Shown here piece by piece: positions 2,379 to 18,458 of a stretch of DNA of 64,000 bases. Under the pieces are notes generated by a model. The model had not been told where the DNA came from, searched no databases, and was given only the letters and a program-made list of their open reading frames with translations. A program made the translations under genes and the position numbers. Source of the stretch: a virus (lineage: Duplodnaviria; Heunggongvirae; Uroviricota; Caudoviricetes); the IMG/VR virus record IMGVR_UViG_2541047879_000001; one strand, given 5' to 3'. Each line of letters starts with the position of its first letter. Positions within the stretch are counted from its first letter, which is position 1.

Positions 2379-4033
2379 CCCCGTTCAAATTCATGATATG
2401 CCTCATCGTCATCACGATAACCGCCCTCCATTGCCCGCGACCGCTCCGGCAGCGCCTGACAGGCTGATTCATCCAGGATGAATCCCTCCATGTATGACGC
2501 CCGGTTTGCCATACAGAGTGCCACGGCAAAATCACCATGGCGGCGGGCGTTCGCAGCCGTTGCGTTCTGGTCCTTCGTGCGCCCCTTGTCGATTTGCGGG
2601 ATACCATTCACCACCTTCACATGGCGCAAATCATCAAGCGTGGTCTGATGGCGGGCGACGAGGATATTCTGATCTTCAAACTCGGCTTTCAGTTTTGGCA
2701 TCCACTCGCCGTACCACTTCGGCGACAACATCACGCAGTCGATGATGTCCGGGCCAAAGGCCAGCAGTGCGGCTTCTGCCAGATAGCCGCCGTTACCGGT
2801 GGCGTCGAACGCCGCACCGACCAGCGCCGGAACGCGGGTCAGGATGTACATCATCACCTGTTCCTGCTGGGCATACGGCAGGTTGCGCAGCTCCACGCGA
2901 AACACCTCGCGCTTTGCCAGGGATTCGGTGATTTCCAGCAGCACAAAGCAGGACAGGTCACCGGTGCGGGCAAAGTCTTCCCCGAAGCTGAAGCGGGAAC
3001 GGGGATTTAATTTCTCTAAAAGCGGTTTTAAATGTTCTTCACACCAGGTTAAAACTTCCGATTCACGCAGCCATGCGGCACGGCTGATGAAGTTGTCCGG
3101 GGCTTCAAACGTCAGAATCGGGATGTCGCGGATCATCGCCATTTCAATAAGCGCGTGAGGAATATAGGCACCGCCGGATTTTTTCGGGATACAGCCGTAT
3201 TCCTCGTCGGCATCCTCACGGGTCGGGGCGTTTTTGTAGAGATCATCACGCCATTTCTGCTCGCTTTCCGGTGACCATTCCTGATCGGTGACGTAACAGA
3301 TACGACGGTACAGCCCGTCCGCAATGGCATCATCCAGGGTTATGCGGTGGACGCTGTAATCCTTGCGCCCCTCGCGGGCTTCCTGAATGTACTGATTAAA
3401 CAGATTATCGACGCCGTTATGCGTGGAGATAATACGCACGCGCGCGCCCCACATAGTGAGCGCCATTGCCGCCTTGAGAAGCTCATCCAGTGACTCGTGG
3501 AACGCGGCTTCATCAATCACCACATCCCCCTGAAGGCCGCGCAGGTTTGACGGACGGGAAGACAGTGCCTGAATTTTGAATCCACTGTTCGGAAAGCGGA
3601 TCATGTAGGTCAGAATTTCTTCTTTTTTATCCCGATCCCAGAAGGTCTGCTCATACACATCAGCATCCGCCAGCTGGTTAAAGGCGCGGGAGAACAGGGC
3701 GCAGGCAGAAATATATTCCAGCGCCATCTCCTGCTTTGATCCCACATAAAACACATTGCGGCCACCACGACGCTTCGGTTTTGCAGCAGTAATGACGTTA
3801 CGCCCGGCTTCCGCCCAGGTAAGACCGGTGCGGCGGGATTTTTCCGCAATGCAGACCTGACTTTCATCCTCAAACCAGCGGGCCTGATAATCCAGAAACA
3901 CCGGCATATCACCGGGCAAATCAAGTCTGTCCGGCACATCCACGCCCAGCAGGGCTTTTTCACCGGACAGATCAATTTTGCGGGGAGGCGTCATTTGTAT
4001 CAGTGAAGGAGACGTTTCTTTGGCTTTGTTCAT
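2369..4033 (-). CDS. Terminase large subunit (Mu gp28-like)
   Basis: 554-aa ORF directly upstream of the portal gene with 10-nt overlap; ATPase/nuclease-sized; Mu gene order. Confidence 0.75.
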   Translation of the reverse strand: MNKAKETSPSLIQMTPPRKIDLSGEKALLGVDVPDRLDLPGDMPVFLDYQARWFEDESQVCIAEKSRRTGLTWAEAGRNVITAAKPKRRGGRNVFYVGSKQEMALEYISACALFSRAFNQLADADVYEQTFWDRDKKEEILTYMIRFPNSGFKIQALSSRPSNLRGLQGDVVIDEAAFHESLDELLKAAMALTMWGARVRIISTHNGVDNLFNQYIQEAREGRKDYSVHRITLDDAIADGLYRRICYVTDQEWSPESEQKWRDDLYKNAPTREDADEEYGCIPKKSGGAYIPHALIEMAMIRDIPILTFEAPDNFISRAAWLRESEVLTWCEEHLKPLLEKLNPRSRFSFGEDFARTGDLSCFVLLEITESLAKREVFRVELRNLPYAQQEQVMMYILTRVPALVGAAFDATGNGGYLAEAALLAFGPDIIDCVMLSPKWYGEWMPKLKAEFEDQNILVARHQTTLDDLRHVKVVNGIPQIDKGRTKDQNATAANARRHGDFAVALCMANRASYMEGFILDESACQALPERSRAMEGGYRDDDEAYHEFERGCW

Positions 4034-4281
4034 CAGGCTTTACCTGTCAGAATGCTTTTGATTCGGAACTCAAGCTCTTCAGTCATCACGTCCACGCCAC
4101 TCAACTCATCAGTGACAGCCTCTGCCAGCAGCGAATGCAGTTGTTCCAGGGATATTTCCCCGGCAATGCTGAGTTCAGTCAACTCACGACACGCTTTTAT
4201 GGTTTCAGGAGGTAACTGTGTTGCAAGACTGAATGCCTTCTGATGAGCACTACTCATCAGTGAGCGGTTATCTGTTACCAC
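4033..4281 (-). CDS. Small phage protein sharing a C-terminal motif with the upstream DUF3486-like protein
   Basis: 82-aa ORF ending ...AVTDELSGVDVMTEELEFRIKSILTGKA, paralogous to the C-terminus of the 193-aa protein at 4292-4873. Confidence 0.5.
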   Translation of the reverse strand: MVTDNRSLMSSAHQKAFSLATQLPPETIKACRELTELSIAGEISLEQLHSLLAEAVTDELSGVDVMTEELEFRIKSILTGKA

Positions 4282-4291
4282 GATTCACCTC

Positions 4292-4873
4292 CTACGCCTT
4301 ACCAAGCAGCATCTGCCTGATACGGAATTCTATCTGCTCGCTCATGCCATCCACGCCGCGCAACTCGTCGGTGACGGCGTTCGCCATCTCTTCAGCAAAT
4401 GCGGCCCGGATTTCTTTTTCACGCTTAATGCTGCGCTCGGCGGCACTTTCCGCACGCTGTGCCGACAGGAGGATGTCCTTAATAAGGCGCATATCCACAT
4501 CGCTGTCGCTGTTCAGGGATTCGGTGGCAGCACGCAGACGGCGGTACATCAGGGCGCGGGACATTTCCAGAATCAGTGCCGTGGTTTCACCGGTCGGCTT
4601 GTCCCCCAGTTCGGCCATCATGGCTTTTGTCTGCTCGCGTAAATCACGCAGGTTACGGGCAATCAGCTCATTACGGGAGGCCTCCCGGCTGATGGCCGCC
4701 GGTGAAAGCTGCTGCTCTTCCGGCAGACCCGCCTCACGGATCAGGCGGTTGATTTCCTCGCGGATCTGGACCTGCGTCAGGCGTTTTTCACGCAGCATTT
4801 CCAGCAGCGGCTTACGGATGCTGTCGGGGAGCAAATCCACCTTGCGTACACGGCCACGCGTTGGCTTATCCAT
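4292..4873 (-). CDS. Mu gp27-like protein (DUF3486-like; putative terminase small subunit)
   Basis: 193-aa ORF immediately upstream of terminase large subunit; N-terminal basic/HTH-like region; Mu synteny. Confidence 0.55.
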   Translation of the reverse strand: MDKPTRGRVRKVDLLPDSIRKPLLEMLREKRLTQVQIREEINRLIREAGLPEEQQLSPAAISREASRNELIARNLRDLREQTKAMMAELGDKPTGETTALILEMSRALMYRRLRAATESLNSDSDVDMRLIKDILLSAQRAESAAERSIKREKEIRAAFAEEMANAVTDELRGVDGMSEQIEFRIRQMLLGKA

Positions 4874-4875
4874 CG

Positions 4876-5166
4876 TTACCCCCTTGCGCGTGGTTTCTTC
4901 ACACCCGGAACGGTGGCGCGGCCTTCCGCCACATCCTGACCCCGGCCGGTCAGTTCAACGATGAAATAACCGTTAACAAGCGTGCGCTTACGCACCAGTC
5001 CCTGCTCGGCAAGCCAGGCAATATGGGTATGCACGGTGTCGCGGGACACGCGGTGGCCGTAATCATCCAGGCAGTCCTGAAGCACGGATTCGCCCAGTTC
5101 GCCGTTGTAATCCGCCAGCGACCGCAGAATGACAAGACGCTGATCTTCAGTAATGAAATCACTCAT
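4876..5166 (-). CDS. Mu gp26-like phage protein
   Basis: 96-aa ORF in operon, position equivalent to Mu gp26. Confidence 0.45.
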   Translation of the reverse strand: MSDFITEDQRLVILRSLADYNGELGESVLQDCLDDYGHRVSRDTVHTHIAWLAEQGLVRKRTLVNGYFIVELTGRGQDVAEGRATVPGVKKPRARG

Positions 5167-5470
5167 TGTGTTTTTTCCTTACAGCCTGCTCCAGCAGCAG
5201 TTCGTTCTGGTGGGAGACGGATTTCAGGGTGGCATTGGTGGCCTTAAGCTCACCGCGCAGGGTGGTGATTTCGATATTGAGTCTGTTCACCTCCTGCTGC
5301 GTGGGCAGGCCGGAAATCCGGCTCTCCACCCGCTCAACCCGGTCGGAGAGTTTTTCAAAGGCCTCGCGGGGGACAAAGGTTTTGCGCATCAGCGCCATAA
5401 AGATCCCCCCGGCCGTGGCCGTTGCCGACAGGATCGGCACGACATAATCTTTAACGATGCTGATCCACAT
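5159..5470 (-). CDS. Small membrane/coiled-coil phage protein (Mu gp25-like)
   Basis: 103-aa ORF with N-terminal hydrophobic segment (ILSATATAGGIFMALM) followed by coiled-coil-like sequence. Confidence 0.45.
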   Translation of the reverse strand: MWISIVKDYVVPILSATATAGGIFMALMRKTFVPREAFEKLSDRVERVESRISGLPTQQEVNRLNIEITTLRGELKATNATLKSVSHQNELLLEQAVRKKHNE

Positions 5471-5678
5471 GACCGGCCTCCATGATGCTCTGGCAGTTCA
5501 CACAACGGATGGCATCCGGCACGGCAACCAGACGGGCGGCCGGAATGTCACCCCCGCAGTCTGCGCATACACGCCTGCCCGGAGTATCCTCCACCCGGCA
5601 CTTACGTGTCAGCCGGTCACAAAGGGCGCGTTCTGTTGCCCGCTCCATGACTGCCTGAGCACAATCTGAATCATCCAT
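5451..5678 (-). CDS. TraR/DksA-family C4 zinc-finger protein
   Basis: CADCGGDIPAARL...CVNC motif; start chosen at ATG 5678 (MDDSDCAQ...) preceded by AAGGA; the track ORF extends to 5744. Confidence 0.6.
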   Translation of the reverse strand: MDDSDCAQAVMERATERALCDRLTRKCRVEDTPGRRVCADCGGDIPAARLVAVPDAIRCVNCQSIMEAGHVDQHR

Positions 5679-5688
5679 ACCTTTTTCC

Positions 5689-6060
5689 TTACTTCGTCTT
5701 TCCTGCCGGAACAGCAGACGTTCCGGCCATATCAGTAAATTCATGCTGTCGCCGTACCTCCAGACGGCGGATGCTGGCCTTGTCCACGTTGCAGTTCTTA
5801 ATCACCGCCAGCAGTTGCAGGTTGTAAGTGACCGATGCGCCAAACGTGAACGGCTGCGGCACAGAAGGGACCAGACAGTCAGCCAGCCATTCAGCGGGGA
5901 TCGGCACCGGCTTCACCGGCACGTATTTCACAGACGGCCCGCCGCACCCGGTCAGCCACATCATCAGGCACAGGAACAGCGGCCGCAGGCACCGTTGCCA
6001 GCGACCGGCGGACAATGCTCTGCTGTTCCTCGCTGTGCTGCATGTTCTGCTGTTTTTCAT
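5689..6060 (-). CDS. Putative o-spanin (Rz1-like outer-membrane lipoprotein)
   Basis: Frame overlapping the 3' end of the i-spanin candidate; basic n-region, hydrophobic core and lipobox LTGC, proline-rich mature part; start uncertain (6060 or 5964). Confidence 0.4.
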   Translation of the reverse strand: MKNSRTCSTARNSRALSAGRWQRCLRPLFLCLMMWLTGCGGPSVKYVPVKPVPIPAEWLADCLVPSVPQPFTFGASVTYNLQLLAVIKNCNVDKASIRRLEVRRQHEFTDMAGTSAVPAGKTK

Positions 6061-6241
6061 TCGTGGCCGCCTTACTGATTTGTGAAATGAGTTGCAGGGT
6101 GCGTTGCTGGTTTGCCAGCACCAGACGGGCTTCGTCCCGTTCACGCACAAGCACATGATTATTGTCCTCAAGGCGCTGCGTCTTCTGGTGCATTCCCCAT
6201 ACCACGGCAGCCAGCACACTCATCACCCCCAGCGCCGCCAT
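5891..6241 (-). CDS. Putative i-spanin (Rz-like)
   Basis: Start at ATG 6241 preceded by GGAGG 4 nt upstream; N-terminal TM segment MAALGVMSVLAAVVW then coiled-coil-like periplasmic region; downstream of endolysin. Confidence 0.45.
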   Translation of the reverse strand: MAALGVMSVLAAVVWGMHQKTQRLEDNNHVLVRERDEARLVLANQQRTLQLISQISKAATNEKQQNMQHSEEQQSIVRRSLATVPAAAVPVPDDVADRVRRAVCEIRAGEAGADPR

Positions 6242-6353
6242 ACAGCCTCCGGCAATCAGGGCTGGTAAGGGATTATTCACCGCAGCCACAGCACACCCCG
6301 CAGCACCACAACAGCACACAGCAGCGCAATCATGAGCGGTCGCCAGAAACGGT

Positions 6354-6854
6354 TCAGACTTTCGGCAAGTCGTAACGACATAACCATTCATCCGCCGAAC
6401 GGCGGGCCTCAAGACCGGGGAGTTTCACCCCCTTTGAATAAATCCAGCGGATATACTGCTTACAGGACGCGGGCATCTGCCCGGCATTGATAAGGCGCAG
6501 GAGCGTGGAGTTGCGAAAGTTCGTTTCACCGGCCCAGAAAATCCAGGAGGCCAACGCCACCGTCTGACCACGGGTAAGCGGCACCTGAACATGACGATCG
6601 ATAGCCGCAAAGGCCCATTTCATGTCCTTTTCCAGCAGCTCCAGACACTCTTCATCAGTTTTTGTCATCCCCGGTTTCACATCCGGGCCGGTATGGCCGT
6701 AACAGATGGTGGGGGTGCCGGTGGGATCAATGTACGTGGTGTTTTCTTTCCCTTCCCAGTAGCCGGTGTAGTGCGTGGCAATGGTGAACGTCCCGGCTCC
6801 GGCCAGAACAAGGGCAATCAGCTTTTTACGCAGGGGTGCGGGGAGTTTTGGCAT
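6354..6854 (-). CDS. SAR endolysin (phage lysozyme, GH24-like)
   Basis: 166 aa; N-terminal signal-anchor-release-like segment LIALVLAGAGTFTIA and catalytic region TICYGHTG resembling phage 21 R-type lysozymes. Confidence 0.8.
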   Translation of the reverse strand: MPKLPAPLRKKLIALVLAGAGTFTIATHYTGYWEGKENTTYIDPTGTPTICYGHTGPDVKPGMTKTDEECLELLEKDMKWAFAAIDRHVQVPLTRGQTVALASWIFWAGETNFRNSTLLRLINAGQMPASCKQYIRWIYSKGVKLPGLEARRSADEWLCRYDLPKV

Positions 6855-6925
6855 TGTTACGCTGTCTCATGGTGTTCTCTGAGTCAGCGTAACCGTGGGA
6901 AAAAGTGGGCAGGATTTGCGGAATA

Positions 6926-7348
6926 TCAGAAAAGCCGGGGCTGCGTGCGTTCCTGATGCAGGCGGCGCTGGTTACGGATAACGGAGTAAATCTGCGTCTC
7001 TGACATCTGGTAGTGGCGGCGCAGGGTTTCAATTTTTTCGCCCTGGCTCCAGCGGGAAAAAATCTCATTATTGCGCAGTTCGGTGAAAAGGGATTCACCG
7101 ACCGGGAGATAATAACCACGCCCGCCCATGTACCCGGCCTGTGCGGCCGCAACTTTACGGGCAAGCATTCCCGCCTGAGCAGGTTCAATCCCCTGACGGT
7201 GCAGTTCAGCACTGATCACATCAACCAGGTCCCGCAGCGTGCCGGGCCAGTTCTTTTTCAGCTCATCATCAGGAATATCATCCAGACGGTCAATCAGCGC
7301 GTGCAGCTGTTCGCTGTCACCAAACATGCTCATCTGTGTTTCAGCCAT
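6926..7348 (-). CDS. Mor/C-family transcriptional activator
   Basis: 140 aa; C-terminal HTH region IETLRRHYQMSETQIYSVIRNQRR resembles Mu Mor/C; located between GemA-like gene and lysis genes. Confidence 0.7.
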   Translation of the reverse strand: MAETQMSMFGDSEQLHALIDRLDDIPDDELKKNWPGTLRDLVDVISAELHRQGIEPAQAGMLARKVAAAQAGYMGGRGYYLPVGESLFTELRNNEIFSRWSQGEKIETLRRHYQMSETQIYSVIRNQRRLHQERTQPRLF

Positions 7349-7418
7349 ACCCGCCTCCGGTCATCATTACACAGGGCAAGTTTAAAATAAAAATCCCGCG
7401 CTGTGGCGGGATTTGGAG

Positions 7419-7931
7419 TTAACGGGGGAATGATTTTTCATACAGCCTGCAAACGCGCTCATAACTTATCACTGTACGCGCTGACATCCCCAGCACATCC
7501 AGCATTTTGCGGCGGTGCCAGCGTTTGAGACGCTCCAGCACATCAGAGGCCAGTGCGGGGTGTTGCTCCAGCCACTGCCAGTTAGCCACACCTTCACCGC
7601 CGTTCTGCGCGGCCGTCTGCGATTTCACCCAGCGGTTAATGGCGTTTTCCCCGCCATCAGCGATAAAGCCCTGCCGGTGCATCACTTTCCAGATGGCGCG
7701 AATTTTGGCGGTCACCGTCCCCGGTTTTAAGGCCCGGTTAACCGGCTTCTGACGCACTTTAAAACCGCGTTTTTTGAAAACATCCAGCACGCGGGATAAC
7801 TCATCCGGTGACATATCCCGGCAACTGGGTTTGCCGGTGGCTGCCAGTAGTACGGATGTGTAGGTCTCATGGTCAAGCTGTAGATCGCGTTTTGCGACAT
7901 GTATTAAGGTAATCAGGGAAGCGCGATTCAT
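7419..7931 (-). CDS. GemA-like protein (Mu gp16 family)
   Basis: 170-aa ORF immediately upstream of the Mor-like gene, Mu synteny. Confidence 0.55.
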   Translation of the reverse strand: MNRASLITLIHVAKRDLQLDHETYTSVLLAATGKPSCRDMSPDELSRVLDVFKKRGFKVRQKPVNRALKPGTVTAKIRAIWKVMHRQGFIADGGENAINRWVKSQTAAQNGGEGVANWQWLEQHPALASDVLERLKRWHRRKMLDVLGMSARTVISYERVCRLYEKSFPR

Positions 7932-7995
7932 TATCGTGTCTCCGTAACAACAGGCGGCATGGCAACGCCGCCCGGATAAAACTAAAGGTATCGAT

Positions 7996-8406
7996 ATGAA
8001 AATAGATTACGATGAAGTATTAAGTATTCTCACAACTTTTCAGGATGCTGAAACACCTTTCCTTACACTACAGGATCTGGGCATGGCTGAGGCAGAAGGA
8101 GAGGAAAAGGATAAAAAAGTTTTTCATCTTATGCTTCTCGCTGATAATGGCTCAATTGTTAATGGTGATATGCAGTCAGAAACACCCAAATATATTGGTT
8201 TCTTTTTCCATTCTCTGGGCGTTGGTTTCAGAAACACGCCCATTATGCTTACCCAGCAGGGGCATGATTTAGCTAACGCCCTGAGAAAAAAACCAATCCT
8301 TGAAAGAATCAAAAAGGAGTTTACAGACGCACCATTTGATCTAATTAAAGAAGTTACCAAATCAATGTTAACCAGGTTCGTCAAAGAACGTATTGGGATT
8401 GACTGA
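7996..8406 (+). CDS. Hypothetical protein (AT-rich, opposite strand to surrounding operon)
   Basis: 136-aa ORF, ATG start; only plus-strand gene inside the minus-strand Mu-like operon; visibly lower GC. Confidence 0.45.
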   Translation: MKIDYDEVLSILTTFQDAETPFLTLQDLGMAEAEGEEKDKKVFHLMLLADNGSIVNGDMQSETPKYIGFFFHSLGVGFRNTPIMLTQQGHDLANALRKKPILERIKKEFTDAPFDLIKEVTKSMLTRFVKERIGID

Positions 8407-8676
8407 ACAACTTAATTCAGCCAGTAATCGCAGGGCGGCGACAGCCGCCTGCTTGTCACTTCTTTTAGCTATTTCCGCAAGAGTATGCACAATCCATAAC
8501 GGACTTAACGCCACGGCTGAATCCAGAATCATGTCATCCATAATAATTTCTGGCATATCCCGCTTGTCACATTCTTTATCCATAAAAGAAACGAATTTCT
8601 CTGCATCTTCCGGTTTCATGCCTCCGGCGATAAGGATTTTGCGATATTCATAAGACGATCTTAATTCAATACTCAT
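8368..8676 (-). CDS. Hypothetical protein
   Basis: 102-aa ORF convergent with and overlapping 7996-8406 by 39 bp. Confidence 0.4.
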   Translation of the reverse strand: MSIELRSSYEYRKILIAGGMKPEDAEKFVSFMDKECDKRDMPEIIMDDMILDSAVALSPLWIVHTLAEIAKRSDKQAAVAALRLLAELSCSVNPNTFFDEPG

Positions 8677-8691
8677 TATTCACCTGCCTGC

Positions 8692-9084
8692 TTAATCTGT
8701 TTCCAGTGCTTTGCTACGGGCTATAGCCTCACATTCAAAAAATACCGACTCCGGCACGCGCTCTTTTAATTCACGAACAAGGAAATCATTAACGCGTTCA
8801 TGACGTCTTATATTTCTTTCCTTTTCCTCCTGGCGCAATACAGCAAGGCGGTATTCAACAGCCCGGCGTTGTTTCTGAAAGACAGCCAGTGCTTTTCTGG
8901 CAGCATTACGCCATGCATCATCGCCACATGGTGCGTATTCAAGCTGAAATTTAATCTCTTCAATAGTTTCTTTGATTTTTGCCAGCAAGCTAAGACAGTC
9001 GCTTATTGTCTCCAGCTTTTCATTATCAATATAACTTCTCACGCATTCACCTCCCGTAATTCCGGTAAAGCCGAAATATGACAC
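8692..9084 (-). CDS. Hypothetical protein
   Basis: 130-aa ORF in accessory block; charged coiled-coil-like C-terminus. Confidence 0.4.
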   Translation of the reverse strand: MSYFGFTGITGGECVRSYIDNEKLETISDCLSLLAKIKETIEEIKFQLEYAPCGDDAWRNAARKALAVFQKQRRAVEYRLAVLRQEEKERNIRRHERVNDFLVRELKERVPESVFFECEAIARSKALETD

Positions 9085-9368
9085 CAGTGCGTCACCTGTC
9101 CGTCTTCATCTTCAAGGCAGGCTCCGGTTTCTTCATCAACAAAAAAGCCTTCATACCCCATATGGCCGATGCGCAGCTCCTGACGGTGACCATACTGAAC
9201 AATCAGCACGACAGCCTCCATATCAGGTGGGAAAGCATCATTCAGTGAATGCCAGGGATAACCGCGTAAATCCCCGAAATAAACACCGGTCAGCGTTCCG
9301 CCACAGAGCGGCATTCCGGCGGCACACACAAGAGGTTCATCTGATTCAACAAATAAGGTCGTTATCAT
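9039..9368 (-). CDS. Hypothetical protein
   Basis: 109-aa ORF, translationally coupled to upstream gene (ATGA overlap at 9365-9368). Confidence 0.4.
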   Translation of the reverse strand: MITTLFVESDEPLVCAAGMPLCGGTLTGVYFGDLRGYPWHSLNDAFPPDMEAVVLIVQYGHRQELRIGHMGYEGFFVDEETGACLEDEDGQVTHWCHISALPELREVNA

Positions 9369-9916
9369 GGCGTTAACTCCCGTAATACAGCGTCCTCGGC
9401 AGTCCGGCGACGGTAATAAACTGCGTGAGCAGAATGTTCAGATATTCCAAACTTTTCGCCAATTTCCCGGAATGACAGACGGCGTGGGTAATCGGAATCA
9501 CGCAGCGCACGTATAAGACGTACATCATCATCAGATATGCGCGTGCCGGGGCGTAACTCTCCGCACTTTGTTAATCCAGCACCAATCATTCCTGCCCGAC
9601 ATCTGACAGAATCTTTATTACGTCCGAGATATTCTCCCATTTGCTGGCAGGTCATTGTTCTGGCATTTTTTCGAATAAACTTATCTTCATCAGGTGTAAA
9701 TCTTGGGTGTTTATATTTCAGTAACTCCGGGTATGAACTGCGCAATACACCAGTCCGGTTATATACAGCCCAGACAGTTCTTTTTATTCTGGCAGCAATA
9801 TCCTTAACCGGGGTGGATGAATAAAGCGCAATCAGTAGCGCATCTTCTTCAGGTGTCCACGCGCGGACATGAGCGGGTGTACGACCTTTTCGCCCCATGT
9901 GTTGTAAAATCATCAT
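9365..9916 (-). CDS. Putative DNA-binding protein with two Myb/SANT-like repeats
   Basis: 183 aa; repeats RAWTPEEDALLIALY...IAARIKRTVWAVYNR and PRFTPDEDKFIRKN...MGEYLGRNKDSVRCR fit the W/F-T-P-E/D-E-D Myb pattern; C-terminal HTH-like segment. Confidence 0.5.
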   Translation of the reverse strand: MMILQHMGRKGRTPAHVRAWTPEEDALLIALYSSTPVKDIAARIKRTVWAVYNRTGVLRSSYPELLKYKHPRFTPDEDKFIRKNARTMTCQQMGEYLGRNKDSVRCRAGMIGAGLTKCGELRPGTRISDDDVRLIRALRDSDYPRRLSFREIGEKFGISEHSAHAVYYRRRTAEDAVLRELTP

Positions 9917-9919
9917 ACA

Positions 9920-10435
9920 TCACCCCCTGACTCGCTTTTCGGCAGCATAAAACTCATCAGACAGAATTTCGGTCATTTTCCGTTTTGCGGAATCATCTTC
10001 GCACTGAAGATAAATCACATTGTCAACGCAGAACCAGTTCACGGGACCATACAATATTGCTGAGAAGTCAATACCCAGCCAGAACAACAGGGCATCGGTT
10101 CTGGCATACGTGACGGGCGAATATTCACGCCACAGACTGTTCAGTTCATCAGAGGCAACACGCAGGGCTTTAGGGATACGTGATGTGCGCGGTGTGCAGC
10201 TCCAGCCATTCGACGCAGTCGGTTTTCGCCATAAGTCGCGATGAAAAGGATATTTGTCCTCCGTAAAACGCAGTCCCTTAAAACAAAAACCACTGATACT
10301 GAATTCAAATACCGACCGGCACGCAACATTCAGCACGGCCTCAAGGCGTTTCGCCTCATCTTTTACCGTCTGGCAGTCCTGCTGGTATTTTTGCCACGCA
10401 GCCAGCGCGGAAGGGTTTGATGTTTTAAAGAACAT
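9920..10435 (-). CDS. Hypothetical protein
   Basis: 171-aa ORF in Mu-like accessory (semi-essential) region. Confidence 0.45.
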   Translation of the reverse strand: MFFKTSNPSALAAWQKYQQDCQTVKDEAKRLEAVLNVACRSVFEFSISGFCFKGLRFTEDKYPFHRDLWRKPTASNGWSCTPRTSRIPKALRVASDELNSLWREYSPVTYARTDALLFWLGIDFSAILYGPVNWFCVDNVIYLQCEDDSAKRKMTEILSDEFYAAEKRVRG

Positions 10436-10968
10436 TACGCCACCTCCGCAGATATCCCGGCAGGCGCTGCTGTCCGGTCAACAATCAGGTAGCGCAGAAC
10501 ACGCGCGGTGATATTCCAGCCGCTTAAACCGCAGATGATGACACCCAGGCGAATGTCGATATACGCCATCACAAACTGGGGCACGCCTTCTTTCATGGCC
10601 TGCTCATCAACTTCAGCCACCACATAAACGGTTTCACAGGTCAGAACGCCCTGAGCAAATTCCCACGCCATCGACGGAATATCATGCCCCTCAATCCATG
10701 GCAGGGATTTTCTGAAGCTGCACCACTGAACATCATCAGCCGCAGATTCCTGTCTGCATTTGCGACGAATCGGCTGCACCGGGCGGGGACGCGGAATATC
10801 ATAAAAACCGTTACATTCCGTCAGCACCCCGGCATCAACCGCATCACGCAGAAAATAAACCATGGAGGATGGCGGCATATTCATTTTTTCAGCCAGTACG
10901 CCGCAGGTCAGACGCCCGTAAATACTCAGCCAGTTTTTAACCCCTTCAAGCACTTTTGCATCAATCAT
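10435..10968 (-). CDS. Hypothetical protein (possible winged-helix N-terminus)
   Basis: 177-aa ORF; start overlaps upstream stop. Confidence 0.45.
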   Translation of the reverse strand: MIDAKVLEGVKNWLSIYGRLTCGVLAEKMNMPPSSMVYFLRDAVDAGVLTECNGFYDIPRPRPVQPIRRKCRQESAADDVQWCSFRKSLPWIEGHDIPSMAWEFAQGVLTCETVYVVAEVDEQAMKEGVPQFVMAYIDIRLGVIICGLSGWNITARVLRYLIVDRTAAPAGISAEVA

Positions 10969-10971
10969 GAA

Positions 10972-11514
10972 TTATTCCTCCGTCAGCGCCACATATTCAG
11001 AATGTTTAATTTCCTGGCATTCTTCAGGAATACATCCGTTTATTTCCCTGCCATAAGCGCCCACTTTAAACACCACGCACAGGGCATCACGGGAGAACGA
11101 AGGGGTCCACCAGGAGTCCGTGTTAAACATGGAGGGGATTCTCATTACCCCCAGCTTTTCACAGAGCCAGACAAGGAAATCAGGACGCTTTCTTAACTCG
11201 CGTTCAGCGGCTTCAATCATTGCGGCAATCGCCGGTCCTTCAGGGCATGACTCATCAGGTCTGGCTATAAAGCACTGTCCGCCACCGATAAAAGCCACAT
11301 CATCGCGCTTACGCCAGCCCGCAGGCAGAGCACCGGCAAAATAAAACTCACTGATTCTGTCCATGGCGAACGGCTTTAAGCGCAATCCGGCAGCGCCTGT
11401 ATTTTTCAGTAATGTCCGAAGAATACTGTTGCGTAGCGGTAAAACAGCCTGTTGATATTTGGTGAAATATTTATTTGTCTGCACACGGTCTAATTTGAAA
11501 TAAAAATATGCCAT
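10972..11514 (-). CDS. Hypothetical protein
   Basis: 180-aa ORF downstream of Gam-like gene. Confidence 0.45.
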   Translation of the reverse strand: MAYFYFKLDRVQTNKYFTKYQQAVLPLRNSILRTLLKNTGAAGLRLKPFAMDRISEFYFAGALPAGWRKRDDVAFIGGGQCFIARPDESCPEGPAIAAMIEAAERELRKRPDFLVWLCEKLGVMRIPSMFNTDSWWTPSFSRDALCVVFKVGAYGREINGCIPEECQEIKHSEYVALTEE

Positions 11515-11611
11515 ATTTCCGATTCCTTATTTTCAGCTTTCAGGCGCAAGCAGTCCCCTGACGCGAGCGCCATAATTAAAATGAAGTGATATTTAAATAA
11601 TTAATGCGGTG

Positions 11612-12142
11612 TTATTTATTCAGTCCGGCATCCTGTTCAAAAGGCTCGACATAAAAACTTTCAGCGCCTTTATTCACCTTTATACCGGCAATGCCTTTCA
11701 CCGCATCCGGCTCCGCCAGGACGGCTTCCTTGTTCACTTCCTCTTTCGTGCGGATGAATCGCTCAAGCCCCATACGGCGCAGCGTGTCAATCACACCTTC
11801 CACATCACGGCTGACGCTGCATGATGGCGTTCCCAGCCGCCATGACACCGTTCCGGTGGTCAGATTGGCAGTTTTGGTTTTGCCGCCGTTCGTCAGCTCA
11901 TCACGGTTGGTTTTACACCAGTCCTGAATCCCTTTAAAAAGCACTTTGATTTGCTTTTTAAGATTTTCAATCTGCGGCGTATAACGGGCGGTGATTTCTG
12001 CCACTTCATCATTCATCGCCGTTTCCAGGCGCAGCGCCTCTCGCTGAATATCGCCCAGGGTGCGGATATCGCGGCTGACTTCTTCGCGGGTCTGCGGTGC
12101 GGCCTCGGCTACAGCCTTTAATTTTGTAACGCGTTTTGCCAT
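11612..12142 (-). CDS. gam: Gam-like host-nuclease inhibitor (Mu Gam family, DNA end-binding)
   Basis: 176 aa; strong similarity to Mu Gam across the whole length (e.g. RLETAMND..., CKTNRDELTNGGKTKTANL, RFIRTKEEVNKEA). Confidence 0.85.
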   Translation of the reverse strand: MAKRVTKLKAVAEAAPQTREEVSRDIRTLGDIQREALRLETAMNDEVAEITARYTPQIENLKKQIKVLFKGIQDWCKTNRDELTNGGKTKTANLTTGTVSWRLGTPSCSVSRDVEGVIDTLRRMGLERFIRTKEEVNKEAVLAEPDAVKGIAGIKVNKGAESFYVEPFEQDAGLNK

Positions 12143-12153
12143 TTTGTTTTTCC

Positions 12154-12474
12154 TTATTGCAATGTATCTGGTGCGTTCTGCAAGGAGCGGCGCTCAATGC
12201 TGCTTTTCACCCCCAGAGCCTGCATGGAACCCTGAAGTTCATCTGTCAGAAACTGAATAATTGTGGGGCTGTGATATTTAAGAATTTGCGCATAAACATC
12301 ACATGGGCCTGTCGGTCTGTTCTCCGTATCACGTTCGATTTTTACAGTGGCAGTAACCCCCTCCGTGATTTCCTGACTATCATTACCGGCTGGCTTTACT
12401 TCATGCATTACGTGGTTAAATTCAAAAATAACGCGTACTTTGCTCATGGAATTACCCCTGCTGATTAAATTCAT
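12154..12474 (-). CDS. Hypothetical small protein (paralogous N-terminus with 12452-12724)
   Basis: 106 aa, starts MSKVRVIFEF. Confidence 0.4.
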   Translation of the reverse strand: MNLISRGNSMSKVRVIFEFNHVMHEVKPAGNDSQEITEGVTATVKIERDTENRPTGPCDVYAQILKYHSPTIIQFLTDELQGSMQALGVKSSIERRSLQNAPDTLQ

Positions 12475-12724
12475 TACCGTTAATAACCCCGGAAGCCATG
12501 CCCCTGTCTTTCATGAATGCACTGGCTTTCATTGCCACAAGCTCTGCGAAGTTTCTGCTTTCCGCGAGCATAACCCCCCCAAAAATCATGGCGGGTCCAT
12601 CACCTTTCTGCTTTATCCCGGTTGAACGTATGTCCAGACTTACCCCCATGCGCACTGTTCCATCAGCGTTTTTATGGATAACGTGCTCCTTATATTCGAA
12701 AATAATGTGTACGACTTTACTCAT
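12452..12724 (-). CDS. Hypothetical small protein
   Basis: 90 aa, starts MSKVVHIIFEY. Confidence 0.4.
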   Translation of the reverse strand: MSKVVHIIFEYKEHVIHKNADGTVRMGVSLDIRSTGIKQKGDGPAMIFGGVMLAESRNFAELVAMKASAFMKDRGMASGVINGNEFNQQG

Positions 12725-13002
12725 CCTCTGGTCCTCGTTCTGTTTGGATAACTGACCCGGCGTCTGACCTCACGGCAGAACCGAATCATGGCATTAAAGG
12801 CTTCTTCCTCCGTCACCGCTTCCGGTATCCCCGGAACCAGTAACTGCTCCTGTTCATCACGTCCATGACGCGCCATAACCTCAATCACATGCCGTACCGT
12901 GGCAGGCTTTCCGGCAACTATCGGCAATGCACCTTCCGGCAGGACGTAACCAAACTCAATAAGACCACTCGACCACGCCCATGCAATGAGATTTTTTTTC
13001 AC
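12721..13002 (-). CDS. Hypothetical small early protein
   Basis: 93-aa ORF, coupled (overlapping stop/start) in early operon. Confidence 0.35.
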   Translation of the reverse strand: MKKNLIAWAWSSGLIEFGYVLPEGALPIVAGKPATVRHVIEVMARHGRDEQEQLLVPGIPEAVTEEEAFNAMIRFCREVRRRVSYPNRTRTRG

Positions 13003-13003
13003 C

Positions 13004-13270
13004 TCACACCTCCCAGTAAACCGTGCAGCCGCTGATGCGGGTGGCCTTCACACGGCGGCGCAGGCCGTTGGTCTGTATGGTGATTTCAATTTCACCGGTT
13101 CCCTGCACGTTGCCTACCGGCGGCGTGGTTTTCAGTGCAAAACGTTGCGGATAGCGCTTACTGCGTTCCAGTACCGCACCGGCAAGTTCGGTCAGACGGC
13201 GCGCGCTGTTCAGGGAGTCGAATAAATTCATTTTGTTACCGCAGGATTGCATATTCATATAACACCTCAT
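13004..13270 (-). CDS. Hypothetical small early protein
   Basis: 88-aa ORF in tightly packed operon. Confidence 0.35.
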   Translation of the reverse strand: MRCYMNMQSCGNKMNLFDSLNSARRLTELAGAVLERSKRYPQRFALKTTPPVGNVQGTGEIEITIQTNGLRRRVKATRISGCTVYWEV

Positions 13271-13498
13271 TTAGCTGACTTGTTTCGCACCAACAGAACG
13301 GCATATTCCGCTGTAAACTTCTGTCGCACCTTCGCGATCAAGTCCGGCAGATATCACCATTCGTGTGCGGTCATTAAATTCAAAAAGTAAATCGCCACAT
13401 TCTTTATTTTCGGCCAGTGAAATCACCTTCACGTTATCGAAATTAACCAGGTAAAAGCGTCCGTAAATATCAGGAATATTAAATACCGCCATAATCAC
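13271..13498 (-). CDS. Hypothetical small early protein
   Basis: 75-aa ORF directly downstream of B-like gene. Confidence 0.35.
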   Translation of the reverse strand: MIMAVFNIPDIYGRFYLVNFDNVKVISLAENKECGDLLFEFNDRTRMVISAGLDREGATEVYSGICRSVGAKQVS

Positions 13499-14436
13499 AC
13501 CTGTGAGAGTAATTCAGGGTTGGTATAAACCTCTTTAAAGGCCGCATTAATATGTTTTTCTGTCAGCGCCGCGCCTTCACCGCTGGCGGTGAGCCACGCC
13601 TGGTTAAGCGTATGTGTCAGAACGCGTAACGCTCCCGGCTTTTCAGCGATAGCCTGCATGACGGCCAGCTCGGCCTCACCACTGATCCCCCACGCCATGG
13701 CAATGGCCAGCACATCCGCCTTTTTGGCCTTGCGAAGTTGTTTTGTACGGGCAAGACGGCTGAACAGGCGCGATAAATCATCAAAGGCGCGGCGTCCACC
13801 TTTAAACAATCCGCGCGGGTTACCAATAAGCACCATCCCGATCCCCGTGGCGTCCTGAATTGCCCGGAGTTGCTCCAGACCGTCAATACCAAGATGATCC
13901 GCCTCATCCACAATCACCAGTCCACGCGTTCCCATCAGGCGACGGCGGATGGCGCGGGATAATGCCCCTTTGTTCGCGCGGGTGTAATCAATCCCCAGCG
14001 CATCGGCCAGCTCCAGCAGACACTCCGTGACGCTGGAGTGCGCGGGTGACAGGGTGATCATCCAGGTGTTTGGTTGCTCCTGGCAGTAATTACGGGCAGT
14101 GGCCGTTTTACCCACACCCGGTACGCCCACAATAACGTTAATACAGCCCATCAGGCGAACCGCCTGAAACAGTGCGCGCAGCTCCTGGACTGTCTGAGTT
14201 TCCACAAACTGCGGCGGTTCCGGCAGTGCGCTTTGTTTATTCCAGTTCTCATACCAGGAGCGCAGGGAAGCAGCCACAGCAGCGTTATCGCCTTTATATT
14301 TTCCCTTACGGAAAGCCGATAATGTGCCGTCGGAAATTCCCGCCTCTCTGGCGATGGCATACTGCGTCAGTACGCCGCCATCAATAAGTTCATCAATGGT
14401 CTTGATTACATCGTTAATATCGGTCATATTATTCAC
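13495..14436 (-). CDS. MuB-like transposition ATPase (target DNA activator B)
   Basis: 313 aa; Walker A GVPGVGKT; near-colinear similarity to Mu B (PEPPQFVETQTV..., GLVIVDEADHLG...). Confidence 0.85.
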   Translation of the reverse strand: MNNMTDINDVIKTIDELIDGGVLTQYAIAREAGISDGTLSAFRKGKYKGDNAAVAASLRSWYENWNKQSALPEPPQFVETQTVQELRALFQAVRLMGCINVIVGVPGVGKTATARNYCQEQPNTWMITLSPAHSSVTECLLELADALGIDYTRANKGALSRAIRRRLMGTRGLVIVDEADHLGIDGLEQLRAIQDATGIGMVLIGNPRGLFKGGRRAFDDLSRLFSRLARTKQLRKAKKADVLAIAMAWGISGEAELAVMQAIAEKPGALRVLTHTLNQAWLTASGEGAALTEKHINAAFKEVYTNPELLSQV

Positions 14437-14509
14437 CTCGCTTGAGACAGCATTCTCCGAGACTGAAACCTCAAATAACCTGAGTCACCCCTCGGGTTAT
14501 TTTTTTATT

Positions 14510-16600
14510 TCAGGCCAGCGGATCACTTTCTTTTAATTTCGCTTCGAGCAACTGCAATCCCCGCTGGAAATTACGCTCGTATTCTTCATCAGGTTCATCG
14601 TCAGCGACCGGTTGCTGAACGGTCACCGTATTACCCACAGGGCGGTATATGTTTTCCAGCCAGGGCTCCTGCGGCTTGTGCTCCAGCACGTTGACAACCT
14701 CATCCTCGGCATCACGGATTTTTTCCTCTGCGCGTTTACGCATGCCTTTAAGGCGCTGCTGCTGTTTGTAGTATTCCGCGCTGACAGGGAAGGCTTCGCG
14801 TTTATTGCCGTCCCATACCGCCTCGCAAATCACGCTGCCATCCGGGCGGCGCACGGTAATTCGTTCGGCATCATGAATGTCATAGCTGATAAGTACCTTA
14901 CGGCCATGCTCGTCACGCAGCTCGGGCGCGTAGTAAATATTATTCAGCCAGCGTATTTCACAGCGTCTTACAGGGCGCTCCACCATCGGCCGGAACATAT
15001 CCCGCAGTTCAACATCGGACAGCCATTCAATTTCCGTGTCCTCTTCCGCCAGGCGTTTTTTTCTGAACTCCGCCGGGCTGTAATGTTTACCGTTCGGCTT
15101 CATGGGTAATTCATCGTGCGGCCGGTTGTTGTACCACTCAACACCGTCACGAATGGCATCAATCAGTTCAGACCAGGACGGTAAATCACGCATCGCTGAC
15201 TGCTGCCGGGCGTTCAGCCGTTTGCCCTGTTGCAGGGCACTGAATGCCGAGCGTAAATCGCGGTTGGTTTTACGTAACGTCTCGCGATCTGCTCCTTTCC
15301 CGAAATAGGTGCGGTATTTACGGGCTATGCGCATCGGTAATGTGCGGTTAAGCCGTTCGATAATGCCCCGTCCCTGCGGATTACCGGCAATCCCTGTCGG
15401 GTGATTAATCCCCAGTCGTGGCAGTATCCCCACAATCTCCTTATCCAGGACGTCGGCGGTTTCCCCGGAGCCATTATCCGAGTAATACAGAAACGGTTTG
15501 CCATGATGGCGAATACCGTGCTGTATGGCACCGGCTACGGCGAAAACATTTTCAGCCAGGTCAAGGCTCCAGCCCACCACAAAGCGCGTGCCACCGTCGA
15601 TAACAAAGGTCACTTCCGGTGCGAATGGCCGCCCGTGAACCGGGTGCGCGCATTTCAGCTTCATGCCGTGACCGTCACCAATCCAGACATAATTCACCGG
15701 CATTCTGGACCAGTCGCGGCGCGTGAATCCCTCAAGCTGACGGTATTCACTGCCAGTTACCCGGCCTTTTTGTTTCACCACTTCCGGCAGTTTCTTCATT
15801 GCGCGGCGAATGGTGTCATAAGAGGGCATGATATCGAGCATATAAGGCTCATCAGCGTGCCGGTGCTGCCATTCAGCAACAAAATCCTCGTAAGCCTCGG
15901 TCATTGGTCGGCCGTTTGACTGGCGATACTGCGCCAGAAATTCGGGCAGCCAGTTAATATCTTCGGCTTTTATTTCCTGGCGTTTACCCGGTGCCAGTAA
16001 AAGCAGGCGTTCAGCGGCGTTCTGTGCCTTGTTAAAGGCCGCAATCCAGCGTTTCAGCGTGATTTCACTCAACGCGCGGCTGTTTCCCTTTTTGGCGTTC
16101 GCCGTCTCAACCATTGCCACAATGCGCTCGTCCAGTTGTGATCGTGCCAGGCTGTTAACGAGGAACCGGATAGCCTTAGCGCAACTAAAGCCGGGTTGTT
16201 GCGCGATTTTCAGCACCTCGCTGACGATCGCTATTCGTGCCTCTGCCACTTTACGTTGGTTTTCAGTCAGGGCATTGAGGCGTTCGACCATCAGTTGGGG
16301 TGATCCGCGATATGCCTCCACCGCATCAACCACGGCAGGTGAGCGTCTGGCCTTTGTCACCACCGGAGCCGGTGATTCATCGGCTTTTTGCGTCATCAGT
16401 TGCAGGGCGTAGCGTTCACGTAATGCCTGCTGCGTCACTTCAGGTAAACAGTCGATGCTGTATTCAGTTGCTTTAGAGCCTGAGCGACGACGGGAACAAC
16501 AGCTTTTCCCTTGTACGTAACGTTGTAATGCCTGGCGAATACCTTTTGTTGTAGCAGGCATTCCGGGCGCGCCAATCAGTTCTTTTGCAATGACATACAT
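14510..16600 (-). CDS. MuA-like DDE transposase
   Basis: 696-aa ORF between ner-like and B-like genes; size and position of Mu transposase A. Confidence 0.85.
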   Translation of the reverse strand: MYVIAKELIGAPGMPATTKGIRQALQRYVQGKSCCSRRRSGSKATEYSIDCLPEVTQQALRERYALQLMTQKADESPAPVVTKARRSPAVVDAVEAYRGSPQLMVERLNALTENQRKVAEARIAIVSEVLKIAQQPGFSCAKAIRFLVNSLARSQLDERIVAMVETANAKKGNSRALSEITLKRWIAAFNKAQNAAERLLLLAPGKRQEIKAEDINWLPEFLAQYRQSNGRPMTEAYEDFVAEWQHRHADEPYMLDIMPSYDTIRRAMKKLPEVVKQKGRVTGSEYRQLEGFTRRDWSRMPVNYVWIGDGHGMKLKCAHPVHGRPFAPEVTFVIDGGTRFVVGWSLDLAENVFAVAGAIQHGIRHHGKPFLYYSDNGSGETADVLDKEIVGILPRLGINHPTGIAGNPQGRGIIERLNRTLPMRIARKYRTYFGKGADRETLRKTNRDLRSAFSALQQGKRLNARQQSAMRDLPSWSELIDAIRDGVEWYNNRPHDELPMKPNGKHYSPAEFRKKRLAEEDTEIEWLSDVELRDMFRPMVERPVRRCEIRWLNNIYYAPELRDEHGRKVLISYDIHDAERITVRRPDGSVICEAVWDGNKREAFPVSAEYYKQQQRLKGMRKRAEEKIRDAEDEVVNVLEHKPQEPWLENIYRPVGNTVTVQQPVADDEPDEEYERNFQRGLQLLEAKLKESDPLA

Positions 16601-16601
16601 A

Positions 16602-16850
16602 TCATGACGCCTTTCTCATATAGCTCTTAACCTGGTATCGACTGGGCCAGATTTCTTCAGGTGATACCCCAAGAGCATCAGCAATTATTTGCTGATACGG
16701 TCGGCAAGGAGTACGTAATACGCTTTTCAGCGAATCCCTGCTGTAACCAGCCTTTAAAGATAAAGAGCGCAGTGATAAGCCAGCCATGTGTAAGCGCGCC
16801 TTGATGATTTCAGGCGGCCAATCGTGATCTGAAACTTCTCTTCTACTCAT
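16602..16850 (-). CDS. ner: Ner-like DNA-binding protein (Ner/Nlp family)
   Basis: 82 aa; C-terminal IIADALGVSPEEIWPSRYQ matches the Ner signature. Confidence 0.8.
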   Translation of the reverse strand: MSRREVSDHDWPPEIIKARLHMAGLSLRSLSLKAGYSRDSLKSVLRTPCRPYQQIIADALGVSPEEIWPSRYQVKSYMRKAS

Positions 16851-17041
16851 ACTTCCTCTATTCTAAAAAGTTACCCGCGCGGATATTCGTGCGGATATCT
16901 GTACGGGTAAATAATGCATCACCAAAAATACCAAATCAAGGTATTTTTGGTATTTTTGGCTAATTTTTGCTTTTATCCTTATTTTTCAATTGGATAAATA
17001 GAAAGAAACCTTTCCTTAGAAAAGCACCAAGAGGTATCTTT
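16851..17041. promoter_or_regulatory. Divergent early/repressor promoter-operator region between ner-like and c-like genes
   Basis: AT-rich 190-bp intergenic region with palindrome CCAAAAATACC (16922-16932) / GGTATTTTTGG (16940-16950) plus an extra direct copy TATTTTTGG. Confidence 0.4.
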
Positions 17042-17572
17042 ATGTCGCAGGGAAAAGAACCTGTTATTGAACGTATTGGAATGCTTACAAAGCGCTACCC
17101 TTCAAGAAGTGCAGCTGCCAGAGCGTGGGGAATCAATATCAACACATTAAACAGCTATTTCAAGGGAGGACAAACACAACCAGCCCCCAGAGAAAGTATC
17201 CTTATACGAATTTCTGAAAGTGAAGGCGTTAGTCTTGAGTGGCTTAAAGAGGGCAAGGGTGAATTACCAAACGATATTGGTATTTATGGTAATTTTGGTT
17301 GTTCTGGTGATAAGGGAGATCAGCTTACACAGATGCTTTCATTCCTTACGAAAGACGAACGAGAACAGTTAACCAATCTCCTTGCTCGCAAAGGTGTAGA
17401 GACGGTTCTGACACTGCTGAATAAAGAAAACCAGGATTTATTACAACTAGAAGGCAGGAAGCGCCTGGCTGCGTTGATGATTGTAGATATGCCAGACGAT
17501 TGCGTCAGAGAGATTTTGGAAAAAACCGAGACAAGTAGGCAATCAAATCCGGTAGAATCTAAAGCGGGTTAG
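17042..17572 (+). CDS. Phage repressor (Mu c-like, HTH DNA-binding)
   Basis: Start at ATG 17042 (MSQGKEP...) with AAGAGG 7 nt upstream; divergent from ner/A/B as in Mu; track ORF starts further upstream at 16967. Confidence 0.6.
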   Translation: MSQGKEPVIERIGMLTKRYPSRSAAARAWGININTLNSYFKGGQTQPAPRESILIRISESEGVSLEWLKEGKGELPNDIGIYGNFGCSGDKGDQLTQMLSFLTKDEREQLTNLLARKGVETVLTLLNKENQDLLQLEGRKRLAALMIVDMPDDCVREILEKTETSRQSNPVESKAG

Positions 17573-17764
17573 TTTGGCGAGGCTGGCCCGTATGTTAGTT
17601 GCCATATAGATTTAATGAAGTTTTAAACGCTTTAAAAAGTTGAGATCGCAGTATCAAAAGTTTTGCCGATTTTAGAATAAACGATTAATTATTGCACAAT
17701 CGATATCAAATAGACTTTAAGCGCTCATCCAGACATCACCTGTTTTATTTCAGTATCTTACAGG

Positions 17765-17822
17765 TGATTTCACCTCCTTTCACTAAAACCCTCGTTGGTA
17801 TCAAATGATTCACCTGGTTACA
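17765..17822. repeat. Prophage left end with transposase-binding-site-like repeats
   Basis: TGATTTCACC (17765-17774) and TGATTCACC (17806-17814), resembling the Mu A-site core TGNTTCAY, within 60 bp of the junction; dbpA reading frame resumes at ~17823. Confidence 0.5.
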
Positions 17823-18451: not shown

Positions 18452-18458
18452 ATCCTGG

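Follow-up and report, generated by a model that had tools for sequence, protein, structure and literature searches.

Phage morons and lysogenic-conversion genes, including bor and lom of lambda, old/tin/fun of P2 and gp15 of HK97, are among the described systems closest to the subject of this study, a small DUF2513-like gene on the plus strand at positions 7996-8406 of a 64,000-nucleotide (nt) stretch of DNA (the window; IMG/VR virus record IMGVR_UViG_2541047879_000001). Like morons, this gene, which lies in a Mu-like prophage, is an optional single gene of lower GC content than its flanks, placed between conserved genes and reversed with respect to the surrounding operon, with terminator-like hairpins on either side and relatives in different slots of unrelated phages. 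Unlike them, it has no recognizable promoter of its own and appears to be ancient at its slot and repeatedly lost, not recently gained. It is a single gene kept by selection, held in reverse orientation at a fixed slot and encoding a winged-helix protein. The fuller reading, that it is an independently expressed accessory (moron) gene made in the lysogen and that its product probably binds protein, has in our judgment about an even chance of being correct as a whole.

At the level of the protein, the nearest relatives are the DUF2513 family itself (PF10711; PHROG 585) and the related YjcQ family (PF09639) of prophage winged-helix proteins, which have the same length (about 130-145 amino acids [aa]) and the same winged-helix core. 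The protein encoded in the window differs in scoring below the Pfam cutoff and in carrying Met84 and Leu92, and membership of the family points to no mechanism. PadR, MarR, TubR and STIV F93 proteins are more remote, at about 15% identity and a Foldseek E value of about 0.02, and are set apart by the acidic recognition helix of the window family and its lack of a conserved basic wing.

At the level of gene arrangement, the Mu-like Pseudomonas phage Fc02 carries olg1, olg2 and gene 10 on the repressor strand, where they overlap lytic genes and are transcribed in the lysogen, and one of them confers superinfection exclusion (PMC9936078). Both cases concern a transposable phage with genes opposite the lytic operon that overlap lytic-strand genes; however, in Fc02 they neighbor the left-end repressor whereas the present gene lies at gemA, the proteins are unrelated, and the overlap is extensive in Fc02 and a 39-bp tail here. 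The SfMu paper discusses no gene like the present one. Type I and type II toxin-antitoxin systems likewise consist of two small adjacent prophage genes, and convergence at the 3′ ends recalls some type I layouts. The window genes differ from type II systems in being convergent and not in an operon, in having no toxin-antitoxin family match in Pfam, NCBIfam or PADLOC, and in each being found without the other; they differ from type I systems in encoding soluble-looking proteins of 102 and 136 aa with wide families of homologues, and an Rfam search at a permissive E value over 7000-9500 returned nothing relevant.

A convergent gene pair in the early operon

Genome comparison finds the 64-kb window identical to the chromosome of Escherichia coli JKHS016. 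Its Mu-like prophage spans about 900-17,600, with early, middle and late genes on the minus strand in the order Ner-like helix-turn-helix protein, transposase A, B, small early genes, Gam, more small genes, GemA, Mor, lysozyme and so on. The genes at the center of the analysis are as follows.

7996-8406, plus strand: DUF2513-like (PHROG 585) gene, 136 aa, ATG start; no other gene in this stretch of the prophage runs antisense to the early operon
8368-8676, minus strand: PHROG 1988 early-operon gene, 102 aa, ATG start, E 1e-38; helical product, homologues aligned at 26-82% identity
8368-8406: tail-to-tail overlap of 39 bp between the 3′ ends of these two genes
8692-9042, minus strand: PHROG 6158 early gene, 116 aa as annotated, with an open reading frame (ORF) reaching a GTG at 9084; part of the same low-GC variable block
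9039-9368: PHROG 6925 gene, the far edge of the variable slot before gemA
7419-7931, minus strand: gemA (gp16 family; Pfam GemA E 6e-28; RefSeq), divergent from the DUF2513 gene across a 64-bp intergenic region
6926-7348, minus strand: mor, the Mu-like prophage gene after gemA

RefSeq annotates both members of the convergent pair at the identical JKHS016 locus. Both are real genes, because the longer product matches PHROG 585 along its full length (E 7.1e-18; residues 1-134 against positions 1-126 of 128 in the profile), has many homologues, is confidently modeled and is under selective constraint (all detailed below), and the shorter one has its own match to PHROG 1988. An earlier note, made from the sequence of the window, had described just such an arrangement, with genes of 136 aa (plus strand) and 102 aa (minus strand) that converge and overlap by 39 bp in lower-GC DNA, and the ORF coordinates and base composition (39-43% GC against 55% for gemA) bear this out. 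Its statement that all other genes except the repressor lie on the minus strand is accurate for about 900-17,600; it fails for 240-899, where there are plus-strand tail-gene fragments associated with an apparent internal inversion. Its end point of 9084 is that of the GTG-extended ORF of the third gene, which RefSeq starts at 9042 and which aligns with PHROG 6158 from residue 15 onward.

Base composition separates the gene from its conserved neighbors, as expected of a moron: GC content is 0.387 for the DUF2513 gene (0.34 at third codon positions) and 0.388 for the 400-bp interval 8001-8400, compared with 0.548 for gemA and 0.556 for mor. The low-GC block extends past the DUF2513 gene, with values of 0.424 for the 102-aa gene and 0.427 for the 116-aa gene.

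Within the overlap the two frames share a codon register, and Leu125 of the DUF2513 protein (TTA) is the TAA stop of the 102-aa gene. The 102-aa PHROG 1988 protein has a conserved DKxAAVAAL motif and a variable tail: only about the last 21 codons of its gene change from one E. coli variant to the other, since in the window the frame passes into sequence antisense to the 3′ end of DUF2513. The C-terminal helix of DUF2513, meanwhile, is kept across the family, even in members that overlap nothing. Because that helix is conserved family-wide while the PHROG 1988 tail varies, we infer that the overlap is a by-product of insertion, with the PHROG 1988 frame reading through into the inserted gene. 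After insertion this frame would have entered the antisense of the lysine-rich C-terminal helix, where a Leu TTA codon would give it a stop.

Recurrence, age and loss

Reversed DUF2513 genes stand beside gemA or mor, at 31-54% identity, in IMG/VR contigs and in Citrobacter, Edwardsiella, Pantoea and Kluyvera (an alignment of 11 sequences was used for the locus search, the 124-sequence alignment being too diverse for it). Copies whose tail overlaps or abuts a PHROG 1988 gene, from Citrobacter, Edwardsiella, Pantoea and metagenomic Mu-like prophages, are 34-54% identical. Homologues at 45-54% identity, which come from Citrobacter braakii, Edwardsiella anguillarum, Pantoea rodasii and many IMG/VR and Logan contigs, are all antisense to gemA/mor, divergent from gemA over 30-71 bp and convergent on a PHROG 1988 homologue. 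The overlap is 39 bp in most lineages (L003-L006, L012, L036-38, L042, L044 and L051-58), 30 bp in L007 and L039-41, and 18 bp in L017, L018, L059 and L065, and in some lineages the two genes abut. In Kluyvera-type phages the gene is still reversed, lies between gemA and mor, and has an 18-bp overlap with a different upstream gene that does not belong to PHROG 1988. Judged by this recurrence of convergent, overlapping or abutting ends in diverged lineages, the layout is not a chance overlap of ORFs.

Deletion remnants and broken copies are also present. In L083 the last 19 DUF2513 codons and the upstream hairpin remain; in L145-151 PHROG 1988 is joined to gemA yet keeps the overlap-type C-terminal tail ELFNxExxFK; and in L034/L077 the DUF2513 copy is frameshifted. 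These remnants together suggest, from sequence comparison, an old insertion that has been lost repeatedly. Where the gene is retained it is kept by purifying selection, with a ratio of nonsynonymous to synonymous substitution rates (dN/dS) of 0.08-0.28 in nine within-lineage pairs.

The family also occurs outside Mu-like phages. A lambdoid Klebsiella phage carries a 30%-identical homologue between its lysis genes and terS, a placement that fits moron behavior. The contexts of distant homologues in Alcanivorax and Microbulbifer are not Mu-like and give no functional clue.

An optional gene at a variable slot

The gemA region of this prophage is present in 232 of 5,426 complete E. coli genomes, and six of those 232 carry the plus-strand gene. 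Across these six, and in several IMG/VR contigs as well, the DUF2513 ORF is intact and its DNA 99.8-100% identical. The commonest E. coli version of the prophage, that of strain 2013C-4081 (L002), served as the comparison and defines the variable segment.

7902-8431 (530 bp): variable segment holding the plus-strand gene, bounded by blastn breakpoints at 7901 and 8432 against L002

At the corresponding position L002 has 587 bp with two small forward genes, belonging to PHROG 17269 and PHROG 2358. Presence and absence thus vary between otherwise syntenic phages, as they do for morons, and PHROG 1988 occurs without DUF2513 in L002, L084-L109 and L145-L151. From the PHROG 6925 gene to gemA, the slot has at least five states among phages whose GemA proteins are 84-100% identical, with two more in distant lineages.

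p116-p102-DUF2513, the last reversed
p116-p102-s65-s98, forward
s98 alone
three genes, one of 46 aa, one of PHROG 6075 and, reversed, one of 79 aa belonging to PHROG 32893
a deletion derivative
two forward genes (distant lineage, L142)
a direct PHROG 1988-gemA junction (distant lineage, L145-151)

The PHROG 6158 gene is missing from slot variants V3 and V4. The reversed 79-aa PHROG 32893 gene (L082, 3191-3430, minus strand, gemA being on the plus strand there) is unrelated to DUF2513 and occupies the same slot, with a 20-bp tail-to-tail overlap with the preceding early gene and a canonical terminator (GGCGGTG-N6-CACCGCC followed by a T6 run) between it and gemA.

The plus-strand gene is therefore an optional, stand-alone part, shown as an insertion/deletion polymorphism at one slot in several Mu-like lineages. 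The earlier note had placed the pair in a variable region between Gam and GemA, and comparison with other Mu-like prophages at the same position confirms that this region is a mosaic. Of its proposal of an acquired cassette there survives an optional accessory gene in AT-rich DNA, the plus-strand one, whose segment the common variant replaces with two forward genes; the proposal does not extend to the pair, which is not one unit, since the 102-aa gene is an early-operon gene often present without its partner. Recent acquisition is doubtful as well, the same arrangement being found across lineages whose GemA proteins are 45-67% identical and the siblings without DUF2513 looking like deletion derivatives.

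The DUF2513 protein

The Pfam DUF2513 profile matches the window protein along positions 1-96 of 100 at 23.6 bits (E 6.6e-5), under the gathering threshold of 29.6 bits. The same profile is matched at E<0.01 by 95 of 124 aligned homologues (best 9e-15), and an identical protein bears the DUF2513 name at NCBI; on these sequence matches the window protein is best treated as belonging to a divergent DUF2513 subfamily. An exhaustive profile search gathered 256 clusters at E<=1e-3, nearly all of 125-150 aa.

An AlphaFold2 model built on the 124-member alignment has a predicted local distance difference test (pLDDT) score of 97.1. It places helices at residues 5-17 and 35-50, a four-stranded wing region within 54-85, and further helices at 87-97, 99-108 and 114-133. 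The modeled fold, a winged helix-turn-helix core followed by three C-terminal helices, is solid. Sequence searches of the PDB, whether started from single proteins or from the 124-sequence profile, returned nothing beyond compositional or chance matches, and Foldseek comparisons with the PDB and BFVD yielded only weak matches, MarR-like or unnamed, at E values of at least 0.01. Neither the protein nor its family has a Pfam match to PadR or MarR.

Residue conservation is not what would be expected of a classical DNA-binding protein. The isoelectric point is 5.2 for the window protein, with a family median of 5.3 and 79% of members below 6. Positions 35-39, at the start of the putative recognition helix, are Asp or Glu in 30-59% of sequences, and position 50 is acidic in 99%; Lys or Arg reaches at most 25% at every wing position, and no basic residue is conserved in the recognition helix or wing. 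The most conserved motif, P-x-R-L-T-x-x-G-H-D-F at residues 82-92, comes after the wing, and basic residues are concentrated in the C-terminal helix. Judging from this pattern, DNA binding is not a safe assumption despite the winged-helix fold. The DUF2513 protein is probably a small binding or regulatory factor, with protein binding likelier than classical operator recognition, given an acidic family that has no conserved basic residues where an operator would be read.

Flanking hairpins and likely expression

Three hairpins lie near the gene or downstream in the gemA-mor region.

7945-7974 (hairpin proper 7951-7974), minus strand: gemA-side GC hairpin whose 10 bp include 2 G-U pairs; UUGUUA comes next, ahead of the gemA ribosome-binding site
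8430-8452 (core 8434-8449), plus strand: GGCGGC-N4-GCCGCC hairpin, -16.3 kcal/mol, a candidate plus-strand terminator for DUF2513
7391-7414, minus strand: strong intrinsic-terminator-like site between gemA and mor, with a 9-bp stem followed by TTTTTATTTT

The gemA-side element ends 6 nt before the gemA Shine-Dalgarno sequence, and the 67-nt intergenic RNA folds at -20.4 kcal/mol. Counterparts with U5-U8 runs stand at the same position in L083, L082, L036/37, L006 and L003, and a terminator scan flags gemA-side sites in L082, L036 (both strands) and L003. Sequence comparison thus points to a conserved, terminator-like hairpin of which the window has a weakened version. Variants with forward genes only are without it, because gemA there overlaps or abuts its upstream gene. 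The terminator-like element sits directly before gemA only when a reversed gene is present.

The downstream hairpin starts 24 nt past the DUF2513 stop codon, with its core at 28 nt, and lies within the 102-aa gene, where it encodes AAVAA. Its tail is TTTTTAT in L003 and L012 and poor in T in the window copy; the equivalent site in L003 is flagged by the terminator tool as a plus-strand terminator with a TTTATC tail. As a terminator-like element it is thus convincing in L003 and L012 and weak in the window. Of three occurrences of GGCGG-N(2-12)-CCGCC in the 64 kb, two (7953-7972 and 8434-8449) bracket the DUF2513 gene, and the right-hand dyad coincides with position 8432, where homology to the variant without DUF2513 resumes. 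The two dyads were considered as recombination or operator sites and rejected as such, the right-hand one being explained by the AAVAA codons and present without the gene. Farther downstream, the gemA-mor site is conserved in the Citrobacter-type relative L036 (5410..5385), and such a terminator-like site suggests that in these phages transcription of the early operon does not simply run on into mor.

The strand of the gene leads to a proposal for its expression. Since it is antisense to the Pe-driven early operon, as the repressor gene is, DUF2513 would have to be transcribed on its own, and most likely it is made in the lysogen, when the prophage is repressed. On lytic growth or induction, convergent early transcription and a ~370-nt antisense RNA carried on the early transcript would probably silence it. 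The flanking terminator-like hairpins would insulate a small antisense unit from gemA-mor and from the early genes, and the lysogen may gain from the protein, for instance if this keeps out or modulates other phages or mobile elements.

Several observations weigh against this account. Only the orientation of the gene points to independent or lysogenic expression: no sigma-70-like promoter rises above background within 220 nt upstream (best score 6.2, background mean 6.3), and scans of 16 lineages with a promoter tool and our own position weight matrix gave no candidate above background in the window lineage and none at a conserved position. In lineages with a 30-bp spacer, any DUF2513 promoter would need to fall inside the gemA coding sequence. 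The early-strand hairpin has a degenerate U-run in the window copy and weak covariation (one compensatory pair and one G-C to G-U change, with a score barely above controls), and the downstream one, also found in phages without DUF2513, is probably imposed in large part by its Ala-Ala-Val-Ala-Ala codons. Within the PxRLTxxGHDF motif, the E. coli/Shigella allele departs from the family at two residues, with Met84 in place of an Arg shared by 95% of members and Leu92 in place of a Phe shared by 84%, which suggests that function may be altered or lost in this lineage. The rearranged prophage is probably defective, because its apparent inversion breakpoints fall within the tape-measure and portal genes. 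Finally, literature searches for DUF2513, PF10711 and WP_000687317 returned no papers, and neither an experiment nor an annotated homologue assigns a role to any DUF2513 protein.

Alternative explanations

The likeliest alternative is that DUF2513 is a dimeric PadR/MarR-type winged-helix transcription factor that acts on the GC-rich dyad in the 64-bp intergenic region and controls gemA-mor, and with them either the switch from early to middle expression or how stable lysogeny is. The modeled fold, with C-terminal helices able to dimerize, would suit such a role, as would the constant position of the gene beside gemA or mor in divergent orientation and a dyad (GGCGGC-N8-GCCGCC) 22 nt upstream of the start codon with counterparts in relatives. 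The putative recognition helix, however, is rich in Asp and Glu in its N-terminal half, and neither it nor the wing of this acidic family has the conserved basic residues that operator binding calls for. The dyad fares no better: some lineages have a 30-bp intergenic region without it, and it is kept both in L082, where the reversed gene is unrelated, and in L083, where DUF2513 has been deleted, so it does not depend on the DUF2513 protein. On the early strand it is followed by a U-run, which is terminator-like, and the gene is dispensable, being missing from many sister phages. We regard a regulatory role as unlikely.

Smaller still is the chance that the gene supplies an anti-defense or host-takeover factor during infection, as an acidic small protein that inhibits a protein of the host or of a rival element. 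A small, acidic, optional protein encoded in variable accessory slots of two different phage types and maintained by purifying selection would fit this description. Antisense placement in the early operon, however, is the wrong design for early lytic expression, and there are no co-directional partner genes and no Aca-like neighbor. Scans of both genes and their neighbors against Pfam, NCBIfam and PADLOC matched no toxin, antitoxin or defense family; PADLOC gave nothing for the 136-aa protein and a best E value of 0.068 for the 102-aa protein, and the family is without experimental precedent in such a role.

Equally doubtful is the view that in this prophage the gene does nothing at present and is decaying as a hitch-hiker. 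The internal inversion and probable defectiveness of the prophage, the R84M and F92L substitutions at conserved positions, and the existence of frameshifted and deleted copies would all be accounted for in this way. Decay is harder to reconcile with an intact ORF of near-perfect DNA identity in the six E. coli carriers, found in several IMG/VR contigs besides, and with a family under purifying selection.

A toxin-antitoxin-like function was among the suggestions of the earlier note. That the convergent pair is a toxin-antitoxin or abortive-infection module, whether through two proteins or through antisense pairing of the 3′ ends, is so improbable that it can be set aside: the type I-like layout, the conservation of the overlap between lineages and the low-GC DNA favor it, but the genes are convergent and not co-transcribed, most E. 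coli relatives and L145-151 have PHROG 1988 but no DUF2513, DUF2513 for its part has a partner outside PHROG 1988 in Kluyvera-type phages and stands alone in lambdoid and non-Mu contexts, neither gene has a toxin or antitoxin domain or encodes a small hydrophobic peptide, and the part of the 102-aa protein that lies in the overlap can be replaced, as it is in the common variant.

Our preferred reading, of a moron expressed on its own in the lysogen, can be taken further. The slot upstream of gemA/mor in enterobacterial Mu-like phages might be a terminator-bracketed "antisense cargo bay" for lysogen-expressed genes of at least two unrelated families (DUF2513 and PHROG 32893), with DUF2513 forming a new class of acidic winged-helix effectors that bind a protein of a competing phage, a defense system or the host, not DNA, and that are switched off by convergent early transcription on induction. 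This extension is speculative, and in the whole form given here it is rather improbable. Taken at its plainest, the gene is an ordinary accessory gene of a DUF family in a prophage variable region, distinguished by an architecture that is recurrent and antisense.

Neighboring elements in the window

At the edge of the Mu-like prophage, a plus-strand tape-measure (tail-gene) fragment at about 240-899 abuts a minus-strand portal (DUF935) fragment at about 903-2369, and RefSeq marks both as missing their C termini. The arrangement is consistent with an internal inversion with breakpoints in the tape-measure and portal genes. At about 17,040-18,700 the left end of the prophage sits in a truncated JAB/RadC (yeeS-like) gene of a CP4-44-like island, so that the Mu-like element appears to have transposed into that island, which bears cbeA and a frameshifted cbtA (type IV toxin-antitoxin).

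A second prophage, P22-like, occupies about 25,000-61,000 beside sbcB/dacD. It carries sieB, genes for O-antigen modification (gtrA/gtrB/glucosyltransferase and an acyltransferase) and a portal-capsid fusion deletion, and its lysis-terminase slot holds a GIY-YIG nuclease gene and a DUF2560 gene. The same slot in Klebsiella phage ST846-OXA48phi9.2 has a DUF2560 gene and a DUF2513 homologue side by side.

Outlook

If the preferred reading is right, the gene would be a compact example of how orientation alone can tie an accessory gene of a transposable phage to lysogeny, and it would mark the slot upstream of gemA/mor as a place where Mu-like prophages keep genes that benefit the lysogen. DUF2513, widespread in gammaproteobacterial prophages and uncharacterized, would then be a reasonable candidate for exclusion or anti-defense screens.

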